From an uncultured Bacteroidota bacterium (GTDB lineage Bacteria > Bacteroidota > Ignavibacteria > UBA10030 > UBA6906): DNA of 64,000 nucleotides. This document shows positions 49,969-55,617 of the stretch, piece by piece. The notes beneath the pieces are model-generated. The model worked only from the letters and a program-made list of their open reading frames with translations. It did not search any database and was not told where the DNA came from. Positions within the stretch are counted from its first letter, which is position 1. Each line of letters opens with the position of its first letter. The DNA is taken from the NCBI GenBank assembly GCA_963700635.1, contig CAVOYH010000001.1, positions 192,001-256,000 on the forward strand, given 5' to 3'. The position numbers were made by a program, and so were the translations under genes.

Positions 49969-50006
49969 GTGTGGGGGCATGGCGGTGAATTGGAATGCCC
50001 CCACAC
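49969..50006 (-). other. 12-bp hairpin between rnpB 3' end and recJ
   Basis: GTGTGGGGGCAT-N14-ATGCCCCCACAC with no U-tract. Confidence 0.5.
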
Positions 50007-50010
50007 GTGG

Positions 50011-50430
50011 TGCAGGTCTGTAAGCCGAATTCTGTCTTCTTCGCTCTTGCAAGCAGAAGGAGGCAGCCATTTCTCTGGGCCGCGGATTGCTCCTTGGCTC
50101 AAGCGGCCTACCCGAGAGTAACCCCCCGCCGTGGGGCGGGGGACGAGGCGAGCAGCCTCTCCTCTCATATTTGGCCTTGCTCCGGGGGGGTTTATCGTGC
50201 CCCCGGGATTACTCCCGGGGCGGTGAGCTCTTACCTCGCCTTTTCACCCTTACCCTGCAAGCACGCCGCAACGAGTGCAATGTGCGTGCAGGGCGGTATG
50301 TTTTCTGTGACACTGTCCGTTCCCGACCGCTTACGCGGTCAGGCCCCCCGCTGTTCACGGGGCACCCTGCTCTGTGGAGTTCGGACTTTCCTCATCCCGC
50401 GGAATGCGGAACGCAGCTGCCCGACCTGCA
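50011..50430 (-). ncRNA. rnpB: RNase P RNA, bacterial type A
   Basis: Minus strand carries GAGGAAAGTCCGAACTC near the 5' end and ACAGAATTCGGCTTA near the 3' end; termini TGCAGGTC/GACCTGCA form P1. Confidence 0.96.
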
Positions 50431-50492
50431 TGTGAGTTGTTGTATGATTTAAATTAACACAATCTAATCGAGAGAAGCAAAAAACGGCGAAT

Positions 50493-50909
50493 TTACGTCT
50501 CCACCGGCTCTCTCGTTTCAATCCCCCGGTTTGCCAGGGCATCAGCATCTCTGTTCTGCTCACGCGGGACGTACCGGAGTACAAATTCATAGGGAGCTTC
50601 TGCACGAAGCCGCTGCACTTCCGAATAGAGCAGCTTGAGTTTTGGATCTTTGACCCGGTAGGTGCCGTTCACCTGCCTGACCATGAGTTCGCTGTCCGCC
50701 TGGACTTCGAGCCGCGTGCATGGCACCGTTGCCAGGCGTTTAAGCAGGGTGACGAGCGCGGTATACTCAGCGATGTTGTTTGTGGCCTTCCCGATGTATC
50801 CCGAGATGGTCAGGAATTCTCCGCCATCGGCTTTCCGGACGATAACGCCGATACCACTGTCGCCCGGATTTCCCCGTGACGCCCCATCGGTCGCCGCGAA
50901 CAGCGTCAT
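50493..50909 (-). CDS. rnhA: ribonuclease HI
   Basis: DGASRGNPG, TNNIAEY, DSEL and NRDADALAN motifs. Confidence 0.93.
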   Translation of the reverse strand: MTLFAATDGASRGNPGDSGIGVIVRKADGGEFLTISGYIGKATNNIAEYTALVTLLKRLATVPCTRLEVQADSELMVRQVNGTYRVKDPKLKLLYSEVQRLRAEAPYEFVLRYVPREQNRDADALANRGIETREPVET

Positions 50910-51637
50910 TTCGGGTTTGCGGCAAGTTCGACTATTTCATCGGAAACCAGAATGCGCCCGCATCGTTCACACGTGTACATCCGTTCGCTCTGCCTGAGCT
51001 CGAGCAGCTTCTGGGGAGGAACGCGGTTAAAGCAGCCTCCACATGCGCCCTTCTTGATCGGTACAACGGCCATTCCCTTTTTTGCCTTCCGGATTCGCTC
51101 GTATACGATCAGCTCCGACTTGCTGATTCGCACCACCGCTTTTTGCCGTTCATGCTGGAAATGGAGCTCTTCGTCTTCCGTCAGTTTAGAAACTTCTGCA
51201 AGTGCAACACGCTTCTCCTCCAGAAGGTGTATCGATTCATCGATGTTCTTCTGGAGTTCAGCCATCTCGGTGCGCGCTGTGGTCGCCTGAATCTCGAGTT
51301 GTTCCATTTCTTTTCCCAATCGCACGATGGCTTCACCCGCACTGTCCATCTCCCGCGTGAGCGCGTCGTATTCCCGATTGGTACGGACTGCGAACTGCTG
51401 GCTTTTGTACCTCTCCAGTTTCTGATTCAGGGAGATGATTTCATTGTCAGCATTGTCGCGCATAGCGAATGCCTGCCGCATCGTTTGTTCGATAGCCGCA
51501 TGGCGTTCCTGTTGAGCGGCAAGCTCGGCTTCAAGCTTCTGAACCGCGGACGGCAGATCGCCCTTCTGCTTAAGGAGTTCATCGAGATTCAAGTCTATGA
51601 CCTGAAGGGTGTAAAGATATTGTAGCTTGCTTTTCAC
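50906..51637 (-). CDS. coiled-coil protein with C4 zinc ribbon (DUF164 family)
   Basis: LQVIDL N-terminus, long coiled coil and CGGC...CERCGRIL. Confidence 0.9.
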   Translation of the reverse strand: MKSKLQYLYTLQVIDLNLDELLKQKGDLPSAVQKLEAELAAQQERHAAIEQTMRQAFAMRDNADNEIISLNQKLERYKSQQFAVRTNREYDALTREMDSAGEAIVRLGKEMEQLEIQATTARTEMAELQKNIDESIHLLEEKRVALAEVSKLTEDEELHFQHERQKAVVRISKSELIVYERIRKAKKGMAVVPIKKGACGGCFNRVPPQKLLELRQSERMYTCERCGRILVSDEIVELAANPK

Positions 51638-51662: not shown

Positions 51663-52772
51663 TCACACGATCATAATGGGCGATGTGTTTGTGGTGGCCG
51701 CAGTGACCACGACGCCGGGAGATGACTCATGAAGCGCGTCCCGCAGGTACCGTGTGACGGCCTGCACCACGGGAAGTTCTGTCTCATAATGGCCTGCGTC
51801 AATCAGGGCTATCGATCCGGCAGCGTCATGGAACGTGTGGTACCGGACATCAGCGGTTACAAAGGCATCTGCGCCGGCAGCGATTGCATCATGGAGCAGG
51901 TCAGCGCCCGCGCCGCCACAGACGGCAACAGTCCGGATACGGGATGTGCGCGCGCGTGTGTGCCGCATCGGCCCTGTTTTGAGTTTTGTCCGTACGAGGC
52001 GGAGAAATGCGACAAGCGGAAGCGGGGCGCGAAGCAGCCCGATGGCTCCCATGCCGGTGCCGGGATGCAGGTTTTCAAGTGGATAGACATCATAGGCGAC
52101 TTCTTCATACGGATGGGCTTTTTGCATCGCTTCAATGACGGCCGGGAGGACCCGCTGATCTACCAACATCTCCAGGCGGACTTCTTCAACCTGTTCAAGC
52201 CTCCCGCGCTTTCCTGCCCGTGGTGAGGAGCGGTCATTACCACGAAAGGTGCCGTTGCCCCGGACGCGGAACGAACATGCTTCATAATTGCCGATGATTC
52301 CTCCACCCGCCGCCGTCATCGCCTCCGCTACGCGGTCCACCGCCGTTTCGGGAACGAACGAAACAACTTTGCGATAGGTTCGGGCGTGCCGGGAGAGAAA
52401 GCGGACCTGCTGAAGGCCGAGCTTGTCGGCGAGGGCAAAACTTGTTCCACCGGGTGCAAAATCGAGATTTGTGTGCGACGCGTAGAGGGCTTTTCCGTTT
52501 TTGATCAGGGCCTCAAGAATCCGGCCTTGACCCGTGGAGCTGTCCAGCGTGCGCAGGGGTTTAAATATGAGAGGATGGTGCGTGATAATCAGATCAGCGT
52601 TCCGCCGTGTCGCCTCGCGGACCAGATCTGATGTGGCCTCAAGTGCTACCAGGATTCGTCGGACCGGCGCCTCAGGGTTGCCCACCTGAAGTCCAACATT
52701 GTCTTTCTCCCAGGCGAGGTCCCGTGGGGCCCAGCGTTCCATGAGAGTAGCGACGTCGCTTACCCGCAGCAT
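51663..52772 (-). CDS. Nif3-like dinuclear metal centre hexameric protein (YqfO type with PII-like insert)
   Basis: DNVGLQVG, THHPLIF, HTNLD, HPYEEVAYD and GHYETE motifs. Confidence 0.95.
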   Translation of the reverse strand: MLRVSDVATLMERWAPRDLAWEKDNVGLQVGNPEAPVRRILVALEATSDLVREATRRNADLIITHHPLIFKPLRTLDSSTGQGRILEALIKNGKALYASHTNLDFAPGGTSFALADKLGLQQVRFLSRHARTYRKVVSFVPETAVDRVAEAMTAAGGGIIGNYEACSFRVRGNGTFRGNDRSSPRAGKRGRLEQVEEVRLEMLVDQRVLPAVIEAMQKAHPYEEVAYDVYPLENLHPGTGMGAIGLLRAPLPLVAFLRLVRTKLKTGPMRHTRARTSRIRTVAVCGGAGADLLHDAIAAGADAFVTADVRYHTFHDAAGSIALIDAGHYETELPVVQAVTRYLRDALHESSPGVVVTAATTNTSPIMIV

Positions 52773-52787
52773 GTGTGATCCAGGTAG

Positions 52788-52818
52788 AAAAAAAAGAATC
52801 CCGCCTCTGGGCGGGATC
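52788..52818 (-). terminator. intrinsic terminator
   Basis: Minus strand ATCCCGCC-CAGA-GGCGGGAT, then TC and T8. Confidence 0.85.
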
Positions 52819-52944
52819 GTAACGCGTTGTCCGTGTGTGCTTCCGTTCGTCGAAGTTCTTTAACAGTATGCGGTTTTAGTTTCACGTGTGAGCGGCGGAC
52901 AACTCTAAGGTTTTAATTTGGGTCCGATGACATCGCATCGGGAC
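52788..52944 (-). ncRNA. candidate structured small RNA (two stem-loops plus terminator; Chlorobi-1-like architecture)
   Basis: Own promoter, 5' hairpin GTCCCGATG/CATCGGAC, second stem GTTGTCCG/CGGACAAC and a terminator; no credible ORF. Confidence 0.65.
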
Positions 52945-52948
52945 TACT

Positions 52949-52977
52949 AATATACCAAGAGGAGGGGAGAGAAGCAA
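52949..52977 (-). promoter_or_regulatory. sigma70 promoter of the candidate sRNA
   Basis: Minus strand TTGCTT-N17-TATATT with an extended TG. Confidence 0.7.
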
Positions 52978-53747: not shown

Positions 53748-53833
53748 CCCCAAGAGTACGGTCATTGTGACCGCAAAAGTGGTGAGAACAGCGGGGACTG
53801 CACTTCACTCACAATTCGCGGGAGAACCTATAG

Positions 53834-54202
53834 ATGGCCAAAAAGAGCAAGATTCTTGTGGTTGACGACGAGGAAGCACTTCGTAGCGTTCTCAGCAGCG
53901 AGTTGATAAACGAAGGATACGAGGTTCTTACCGCATCGGATGGCGATGAGGCCATCACAGAGGTGGACAAGACGCCGTTTGACCTTGTGCTGCTGGACAT
54001 CAAAATGCCGCGCGTGAACGGATTTGAAGTCCTAAAGCACATCAAGGAACGCCCGACCCGGACCAAAGTGGTGATGCTGACAGGTTTCGCGGATCTGAAG
54101 AACGCGATTGAGTCCAAAAAACTGGGGGCCGACGACTTTGTCAGCAAACCGTATGATCTTGTGGATCTGCTGACGACCATCGAACGTGTTCTGAATGAAT
54201 AG
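53834..54202 (+). CDS. single-domain response regulator
   Basis: VVDDE, LLDIKMP, MLTG and SKPY motifs; 122 aa. Confidence 0.93.
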   Translation: MAKKSKILVVDDEEALRSVLSSELINEGYEVLTASDGDEAITEVDKTPFDLVLLDIKMPRVNGFEVLKHIKERPTRTKVVMLTGFADLKNAIESKKLGADDFVSKPYDLVDLLTTIERVLNE

Positions 54203-54246
54203 CCGCCATTGCCTCCCACGGTGCACACTCTAAGCGCGGCGGGAGT

Positions 54247-55617
54247 ATGGCAAAAAAATACAACCTCCTCGTTGTAGACGACGAAGCCCCCCTCCGGCTT
54301 CTCCTGGAAAGTGAACTCTCCGAAGCTGATGAATTTGCGGTGGATGTTGCCGCAGATGGCGGAGAGGCGATCAACCTGATCCAGGGAAATGTGTACGATG
54401 TAATCCTGCTCGATGTCCGCATGCCCCGCGTCAGCGGAATAGAAGTGCTGAAGTTCGTACAGGAATACTCTCCGACGACCCAGGTCATTATCCTCACCAA
54501 CTACGCAGACATCAAAACCGCCATCGAGACGATCAAACTCGGGGCGTATGATTTTCTTGCAAAACCGTATGACATAGAAGAGATTTTTAATACGATCCAT
54601 CGCGCTCTTGAACGGCGCGCCCTGTTTATTGACAACAAGCTGATGAAGAGCGAACTCTCCCGCAAAACGGGCGCACATGAACTGATCGGCCAGAGCCCTG
54701 TGTTCCTGCAGATGATCGAGAGCGCAACACGGTTTGCTGAAAGTGAATCGTTTGTGCTCATCCAGGGAGCAAGTGGAACCGGCAAAGAACTTATCGCCAA
54801 CCTGATCCACCGGCGCAGCACACGAAACAACCGGCCCTTCGTTGCGGTCAACTGCGCATCGATTCCCGATGCCCTGCTGGAAAGTGAGCTGTTCGGTCAC
54901 GAAAAAGGCGCATTCACCAATGCTTTTTCCACGAAACAGGGACTCGTGGAAGTGGCAAACGGCGGAACCCTCTTTCTGGATGAAGTCGGTGACATCAGTC
55001 CGGCTATCCAGCCGAAACTCCTGCGGTTTCTGGAGACAGGGGAATTCCGCCGCGTTGGAGGAACGAATCTCCTCACCGTCGATGTACGCGTGGTGAGTGC
55101 CTCAAACAAGGATCTTCGCGAAGAAGTGGCTGCCGGCAAATTTCGGGAGGATCTTCTCTACCGGCTGAATGTGGTGTCGGTGCGTATGCCATCCCTCCGG
55201 GAACGGGCCGACGATATCCCTATTCTTGCCGAATATTTTCTTGAGCGGAAAGCCAAATCGAAAAATATCAAACGTCTCTCGGACGGCGCGCTGGCGTTGC
55301 TCCTGACTCACACCTGGCCCGGTAACGTGCGTGAACTGGAACATGTGATCGAAGGGGCAATCCTCCTCTCCTCGGGAGAGATCATCGAGGAACATGATCT
55401 CCTGATGTACTTCCAGCGTACAGAGCCGAATCTTGTCACTCCCGCACCGCAGAAGACGGCGGGTTCCATTACCCTTGATGAACTGGAACGTCAGCATATC
55501 GAACGGACGCTCCGCGAGCAGCAGTTTAACCGCGCACGCACAGCCCAGGTGCTCGGGATCAGCAAAAAGACACTTTACTTGAAGATCAAGCGGTACGGGC
55601 TGAGGATCGACGAGTGA
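54247..55617 (+). CDS. sigma54-dependent response regulator (NtrC family)
   Basis: REC, AAA+ (GASGTGKE, ESELFGHEKGAFTNA, FLDEVG, WPGNVREL) and a Fis-type HTH. Confidence 0.95.
   Translation: MAKKYNLLVVDDEAPLRLLLESELSEADEFAVDVAADGGEAINLIQGNVYDVILLDVRMPRVSGIEVLKFVQEYSPTTQVIILTNYADIKTAIETIKLGAYDFLAKPYDIEEIFNTIHRALERRALFIDNKLMKSELSRKTGAHELIGQSPVFLQMIESATRFAESESFVLIQGASGTGKELIANLIHRRSTRNNRPFVAVNCASIPDALLESELFGHEKGAFTNAFSTKQGLVEVANGGTLFLDEVGDISPAIQPKLLRFLETGEFRRVGGTNLLTVDVRVVSASNKDLREEVAAGKFREDLLYRLNVVSVRMPSLRERADDIPILAEYFLERKAKSKNIKRLSDGALALLLTHTWPGNVRELEHVIEGAILLSSGEIIEEHDLLMYFQRTEPNLVTPAPQKTAGSITLDELERQHIERTLREQQFNRARTAQVLGISKKTLYLKIKRYGLRIDE

Follow-up and report, generated by a model that had tools for sequence, protein, structure and literature searches.

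A conserved small open reading frame and terminator upstream of nif3 in Ignavibacteria: a candidate ribosome-dependent attenuator

The nif3 leader and its operon

The window, which is the whole stretch of 64,000 nucleotides that was analysed here, comes from an uncultured Bacteroidota bacterium of the class Ignavibacteria and carries on its minus strand a unit of about 155 nt, from promoter to terminator, directly in front of nif3 (Table 1). All of the features that an earlier sequence-only reading of this DNA had listed were found, on reading the sequence again, where it had placed them. Transcription would start near 52942 on the minus strand, as judged from the position of the -10 box. The terminator has a G+C-rich stem of 9 bp and its U-tract is separated by a gap of 15 nt from the ATG of nif3 (52772), which would be the target of the putative attenuator. 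A small open reading frame (ORF), which begins in the middle of the leader, runs through the terminator and ends 8 nt inside nif3. On the other side of the leader, the C-terminal region of the response-regulator/HisKA protein, with its LRDLNFEKIDF-type motif, recurs directly before the stop codon upstream of the leader in many, but not all, of the genomes of the family, and a further ORF of 363 amino acids (53809-54900, minus strand) had no Pfam match at E<=0.001.

Table 1. The nif3 leader and the neighbouring genes, in positions of the window
Feature	Position	Strand	Basis or remark
-35 box TTGCTT	52972-52977	minus	direct reading of the window sequence
-10 box TATATT	52949-52954	minus	direct reading; spacer to the -35 box of 17 nt
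5' hairpin of the leader, GTCC(C)GATG...CATCGGAC	52922-52944	minus	sequence reading and minimum free energy (MFE) fold
UAAAACC copies	52909-52915 and 52872-52878	minus	direct reading
A-rich stretch	between the 5' hairpin and the 8-bp stem	minus	direct reading
8-bp stem, GTTGTCCG with CGGACAAC	52896-52903 with 52826-52833	minus	reading and MFE fold
Region closed by the 8-bp stem	52826-52903	minus	contains the start of the small ORF
Small ORF, 41 codons	52760-52885	minus	GTG start 52885-52883, TAA stop 52762-52760
Conserved N-terminal coding core, codons 1-14 of the small ORF	52844-52885	minus	genus alignment
Intrinsic terminator	52788-52818	minus	stem-loop 52797-52818, one C, U8 52788-52795
nif3 (DUF34/NIF3)	51663-52772	minus	Pfam PF01784, E = 5.6e-76; first gene downstream
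Zn-ribbon gene (COG1579 type)	50906-51637	minus	Pfam PF02591; downstream of nif3
RNase H-like gene	50493-50909	minus	Pfam PF13456/PF00075; last of the operon
Response-regulator/HisKA gene, 220 aa	53023-53685	minus	receiver and HisKA domains, without ATPase domain; 5' of the leader

Taken without comparison to relatives, the features of the window are not beyond chance. The MFE fold of the leader, which contains the 5' hairpin, the closing stem and the terminator, had an energy of -41.7 kcal/mol (z = -2.07) and was equalled by nine of 200 shuffles; it is only marginally better than chance. A consensus scan detected the terminator, with four terminator-like sites observed in the region against 2.7 expected, and did not list the promoter, whose -35 box fits three of the six consensus positions. 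It is because of its conservation across genomes that the leader unit stands above chance.

The RNase P RNA gene (50005-50432, minus strand) was found directly downstream of the nif3-Zn-ribbon(-RNase H) operon. In eight of the 16 relatives' loci that reach that far, rnpB likewise follows the nif3 operon (L100, L105, L011, L106, L020, L096, L101 and L098), and these include a named Ignavibacterium locus; judged from these gene orders, the linkage seems to be conserved across the class. A TTGCTT-N17-TTAATT box (50452-50480, minus strand) lies about 20 nt before the 5' end of the RNase P RNA, and its first 11 bases, TTGCTTCTCTC, are shared with the promoter region of the leader. In the relatives, a TTAATTAAC/TAATTCAC-like box is likewise found, 12-18 nt in front of rnpB.

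NIF3/DUF34 proteins are found across all domains of life, and what they do is still a matter of debate. In the parts of a 2021 comparative study that bear on it, a role as metal chaperone or insertase was proposed, and COG1579 was given as the commonest operon partner of NIF3, with COG0328 (RNase H) in the top 20 (PMC8469502). The words 'leader', 'terminator', 'riboswitch' and 'rnpB' were absent from the passages of that study that were searched (PMC8469502), and a literature search at the level of main texts found no description of this nif3 leader.

Conservation across the family and the class

Within the family of the window's genome, nif3 was located in 65 of 68 genomes and the upstream DNA was read in 63 of these, the other two being cut by contig ends. 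The same arrangement, TTGnnn-17-TAnnnT followed by a transcribed stretch of 92-164 nt and a terminator before nif3, was found in 62 of the 63, so that the promoter-to-terminator unit described in the sequence-only reading exists and is conserved, its promoter included; in the 63rd genome, the contig ends 39 nt upstream and the hairpin is still visible. The TTG(C/A)nT box stands exactly 17 nt from the -10 box in all 62 genomes with enough upstream sequence, and the -10 box is TATATT in 58 of them. The unit stays with nif3 always, while the neighbouring gene upstream of it differs among genera. In a DNA search of 41 relatives, the stretch was matched in all five other genomes of the genus and the terminator alone in two further genera. 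A paralogue search using nhmmer matched the locus alone, which makes the leader unit single copy in its own genome. The promoter pattern TTGC[AT]T-N17-TAWWWT occurs at 45 sites in the genome and points to no promoter class.

The terminator was present before nif3 in all 63 family genomes examined, its U-tract ending 8-56 nt from the nif3 start, and no promoter-like boxes were seen in that interval. The interval is too short to house a promoter, so that transcription of nif3 has to come from read-through, which agrees with the earlier suggestion that the terminator attenuates nif3.

The class Ignavibacteria was sampled using 91 genomes, 51 of which had nif3, and 40 loci from other families were read; seven loci were left out (five with weak, partial matches, one truncated at the start of its contig and one that was not retrieved). 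A strong terminator 3-25 nt before nif3 was found in 36 of the 40, the four loci that lack it being all from one family. Of the 36 loci with a terminator, 34 also had a promoter, and 31 of those 34 an ATG- or GTG-started small ORF. By eye, the named loci of Ignavibacterium, Melioribacter and other Ignavibacteriales have the same layout, which was not seen by eye in loci of Rhodothermales, Bacteroidales and Flavobacteriales. Judged from the loci that were read, the leader unit is conserved across Ignavibacteria. A second, weak nif3-like match was met in one genome (G072:C16:433614-434543); it has 32% identity and six TGA codons inside, and may be either a pseudogene or part of a contaminating contig that uses another genetic code.

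The terminator hairpin has a median dG of -18.3 kcal/mol (59 family genomes). The sequence of its stem, and not just the pairing, is kept over large distances, which is unusual for a terminator: AATCCCGCC or GTGTCCCGCC in the GC-rich families, and ATGCACTCC, GTGTCCG or GTGTTCC in the AT-rich families (e.g., L156-L195). An A-run that mirrors the U-tract usually precedes the stem.

The small open reading frame

When the 63 leaders were translated in three frames, related peptides appeared in one frame. Of 62 family genomes, 59 could be given a homologous frame and three were left without an assigned ORF. The peptide consensus of 25 genera, aligned from the start codon, reads M-x-x-R-K-P-Y-x-D-K-N-H-I-S. 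In three genera, the window's own among them, the peptide starts with GTG and is one residue shorter, and the GTG start region, TCACACGTGAA, is identical in six of six genomes of that genus. The peptide encoded in the window diverges more than any other in its genus, and its GTG start has no recognisable Shine-Dalgarno sequence. The peptide is too short for HMM iteration, which did not get beyond 24 of 63 genomes, and for that reason the homology of the small ORF rested on position and codon statistics.

Within the family, in ten genus-level alignments, the minimal numbers of changes at codon positions 1, 2 and 3 were 51, 60 and 92 (chi-square p = 0.001). Synonymous and non-synonymous changes numbered 70/106 in frame, compared with 29/141 for one shifted frame and 31/137 for the other (Fisher 3e-6 and 2e-5), all of these counts being minimum changes per column and not phylogenetically independent events. 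For the window's genus alone, the in-frame count was 15/18 and the shifted frames had 4/30 and 6/28; nine genera compared with one another gave 21/26 in frame against 11/40 and 8/41. In four other families of the class, the signature was not significant (36/164 in frame against 28/185 and 36/177 shifted); the sequences of these more distant families are probably saturated for this test. The frame was open for at least 16 codons in 25 of 25 genera, compared with 15 and 14 of 25 for the other two frames and a shuffle mean of 0.44, a comparison that is circular because the start codons were picked from open frames. The codon statistics indicate that the small ORF in the window's family (f1) is under selection as a coding frame, and a small protein-coding frame as the conserved core of the unit is, on this evidence, what the sequence-only reading missed.

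The geometry of the unit was measured in the 59 genomes, from 25 genera, that had an assigned start of the small ORF. Measured between the start codon and the loop centre of the terminator, the median distance is 78 nt, with an SD of 2.8 and a range of 69-84 among genus medians; start codon and terminator are 65-100 nt apart. The 5' UTR has a length of 19-69 nt (SD 15) and the ORF one of 16-42 codons. The end of the stop codon falls between 25.5 nt before and 51 nt beyond the loop centre in all 59 genomes, a result that is partly circular for the genera represented by a single genome, in which ORF assignment was filtered on stop position; by this range, the stop lies either beyond the hairpin base or no more than about 12 nt short of it. 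The other families showed start-to-loop distances of mostly 78-95 nt and a 5' UTR of 3-24 nt, three of them having longer frames. The stop position and the C-terminus vary within genera, as in one genus with 16, 25 and 39 codons, and the stop codon was lost in many independent lineages, in which the frame passes the hairpin and the U-tract and ends at or just inside nif3. Among the long forms (e.g., G013, G018, G024, G045, G060, G031, G115 and G125), the TGA stop frequently shares bases with the start of nif3, in the form of ATGA or GTGA. Translational coupling classically has this layout; the overlap was not counted as evidence because it is partly forced by the N-terminus of nif3 (Met-Thr).

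We give roughly even chances to the reading in which the element is a leader-peptide, ribosome-dependent attenuator of the nif3 operon that would work like those of pyrBI and pyrE. The conservation of the peptide points to an arrest or sensor peptide or else to a micro-protein with a function of its own, and so the main rival to be weighed is a stand-alone gene, the product of which would be a basic peptide of about 20 residues acting in trans, perhaps with Nif3 or the Zn-ribbon protein, while nif3 would be expressed by a constitutive leak. We consider this possible, if somewhat unlikely. Amino acids conserved through synonymous changes and a consensus common to many genera are what such a gene would show, small genes with high expression normally combine a strong promoter and a strong terminator, and the strict synteny with nif3 would fit a functional partnership. 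However, the distance from start to terminator is constant wherever the stop falls, the C-terminus is not, and many lineages run into a poly-Phe tail. A cis-acting leader can tolerate variation of this kind more readily than a folded micro-protein can; together with the fixed start-to-hairpin distance, the variation favours a role in cis. Moreover, four leader peptides had no family match in Pfam or NCBIfam, a word-based homologue search with the 41-aa ORF of the window found nothing, and the peptides of other families cannot be recognised as the same sequence.

RNA structure, proposed attenuation and comparison with known systems

The structured RNA that had been proposed from the window alone was not recovered among its relatives. 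In four groups of transcripts (13, 18, 10 and 5 sequences), RNAalifold kept the terminator and at most tiny local hairpins, and there were no covarying helices. The 8-bp stem is present in the window but is kept in only two of the six genomes of the genus (G000, and G004 with one G-U pair) and does not enter the RNAalifold consensus; a similar long-range stem of another genus has pairs that are broken, without compensation, in three of nine genomes. The 5' hairpin is present as well, and by eye the relatives in the genus have a hairpin with another stem sequence at that place, but RNAalifold dropped it and it is absent from the families with a 5' UTR of 3-16 nt. As for UAAAACC, which had been taken for a binding motif, both copies are there in the window, but none of the other five genomes of the genus has the repeat, and the second copy falls, within the small ORF, in codons 3-5. 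Upstream pairing that involves 6 nt or more of the terminator's 5' arm occurs in 27 of the 59 transcripts, with partners anywhere from -56 to +83 relative to the start codon; no partner of the terminator arm recurs at a constant place and no mutually exclusive pair of antiterminator and terminator is conserved among the 59. An RNA-structure switch is disfavoured because there is no constant pairing partner and because the terminator alone is conserved as a structure.

Comparison with Rfam led to a similar result. At the gathering score, Rfam 15 matched RNase P alone in the whole window, and in the loci of 16 relatives it matched RNase P only, with nothing upstream of nif3. A permissive covariance-model scan of the locus (E<=10), a check that had been suggested along with the sequence-only reading, brought only weak terminator look-alikes (best E = 0.43) and nothing credible. 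A catalogued structured RNA or riboswitch was rejected, there being no credible match to an Rfam 15 model at the locus and no conserved covarying helices.

The Chlorobi-1 RNA, of which the unit had been thought a homologue or analogue, is similar to it in being a short transcript that ends in a terminator and in coming from a related class of the same phylum. Its model (RF01696; 67 positions, cut-off 50 bits) gave a best genome-wide score of 13.5 bits, away from the locus, where no such match appeared even at E<=10. Among 151 genomes sampled across the phylum, 20 exceeded the cut-off, all in two other families (f35 and f38), and the copies are mostly tandem, a few hundred bases apart. In most carrier genomes, they form arrays of 2-5 copies with a spacing of roughly 140-480 nt (L196-L207; G263:C1:1700054-1700572). 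None of the 12 Chlorobi-1 loci has nif3, and five carrier genomes gave no nif3 match with the query used here. In a passage of the paper that introduced it, Chlorobi-1 is listed as a non-cis-regulatory RNA (PMC2864571). Identity with Chlorobi-1 was rejected on the score below the cut-off, the different genomic setting and the length of 67 positions against about 155 nt.

These results bear on two further explanations. Terminated leaders can act in trans in other bacteria, and the transcript of about 150 nt could be, as in the sequence-only reading, a trans-acting or dual-function small RNA that works through base pairing or protein sequestration, the ORF being incidental. The promoter and the terminator do bound a discrete short transcript and the genus does have a 5' hairpin; we find this explanation quite unlikely all the same, as the terminator is the sole conserved structure, changes in the conserved segment follow a codon periodicity, UAAAACC is not kept as a repeat, no Rfam family was matched, and the AT-rich families, with a 5' UTR of 3-16 nt, have a transcript that holds hardly anything besides the ORF and the terminator. 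A ligand- or protein-binding RNA leader, riboswitch-like or autoregulated by a protein of the operon, and acting on the terminator through RNA structure, would fit the position, which is that of a cis-regulatory leader, and the annotation of the Zn-ribbon protein as a predicted nucleic-acid binder in a passage of the 2021 study (PMC8469502), but it is very unlikely given that there is no conserved aptamer-like structure, covarying helix, constant antiterminator or Rfam match and that the leader is in several families too short for more than the ORF.

In the attenuator reading, which we prefer, a sigma-70-type promoter would drive a short transcript, the leader of the nif3 operon. By default, RNA polymerase would stop at the terminator and release a transcript of about 150 nt. 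A ribosome that translates the small ORF close behind the polymerase would cover or melt the 5' arm of the hairpin, and the polymerase would then continue into nif3, the Zn-ribbon gene and the RNase H gene. We infer the transcript ends, the translation of the small ORF and the read-through from the sequence. The principle was measured in E. coli, where, according to the relevant sections of the report, termination fell from ~90% to <10% when the stop codon was shifted from 28 to 5 bp in front of a terminator, and was restored when translation was removed (PMC4824070). The same sections state that terminators in the first 100 bp of a coding region are still efficient in E. coli and that, without a pause site, the first ribosome rarely catches the polymerase so early (PMC4824070). 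This counts against coupling here, because the terminator is as near to the start codon as given above and early terminators stay efficient without a pause site. Moreover, the conservation of the peptide sequence is left unexplained by a simple coupling model.

It may be speculated that the conserved N-terminal peptide tunes the speed of the ribosome or senses a signal within the exit tunnel. In a stricter version, the nascent M-x-x-R-K-P-Y-x-D-K-N-H-I-S would be an arrest peptide that senses a metabolite or a metal tied to the function of NIF3, and the ribosome would be a ligand-gated antiterminator of the nif3-Zn-ribbon-RNase H operon throughout Ignavibacteria. The ribosome would then be held on the terminator's 5' arm, about 21 codons into the ORF, with the fixed start-to-hairpin distance of 78 nt serving as a ruler. 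We regard this version as rather unlikely.

A putative class-wide regulatory leader of nif3 is an experimental handle on the conditions in which cells want more Nif3, Zn-ribbon protein and RNase H. The attenuator reading would add to the short list of ribosome-coupled terminators a case that conserves its peptide and has no antiterminator, and the lineage that hosts the putative attenuator is one in which this mRNA is nearly leaderless in several families. There is also a warning for annotation in that a unit that looks like an sRNA should be marked as a small ORF and an attenuator.

Among the known attenuators, the classical trp/his type has a leader ORF and an intrinsic terminator before an operon, as was found here. 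It was rejected since the leader shows neither tandem regulatory codons nor a conserved antiterminator: the conserved core, in the consensus of 25 genera, has no run of a repeated residue, and unlike trpL and hisL there is no run of codons for a single amino acid and no mutually exclusive antiterminator/terminator pair. TnaC senses tryptophan and blocks Rho-dependent termination. Its likeness to the leader lies in a peptide of about 20-24 residues with conserved residues roughly 8-18 from the C-terminus and a ribosome beside a termination signal, and the conserved residues 4-14 of about 20-22 found here stand, by sequence, at positions that are compatible with a TnaC-type arrest peptide. However, many lineages here do not have the nearby stop codon.

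In rph-pyrE, the ORF ends a few nucleotides before an intrinsic terminator and the terminating ribosome suppresses termination. The short forms of the leader are similar in ending between -2 and about 12 nt before the hairpin base. The upstream ORF there is the full-length rph, which gives time to couple, whereas here it has 16-25 codons. In pyrBI, the leading ribosome itself blocks the hairpin and an antiterminator is not needed; UTP-sensitive pausing of the polymerase in U-rich tracts is required and the peptide sequence is not important. The pyrBI leader (pyrL) is a promoter-proximal small ORF that runs through an intrinsic terminator just before the first structural gene, and this layout is shared by the long forms, including that of the window. 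The differences are that the N-terminus of the peptide is conserved here and that the nif3-Zn-ribbon-RNase H operon has no known link to pyrimidines. The E. coli report in which the principle was measured also mentions pyrBI (PMC4824070). The layout that the two systems have in common, a terminator directly in front of the gene that the ORF either encloses or approaches with its stop to within a ribosome footprint, was found in all 59 genomes with an assigned ORF, a count that is partly circular for the genera represented by a single genome. The leader is best filed, on its resemblance to these two systems, as an added case of the ribosome-dependent leader-ORF attenuators.
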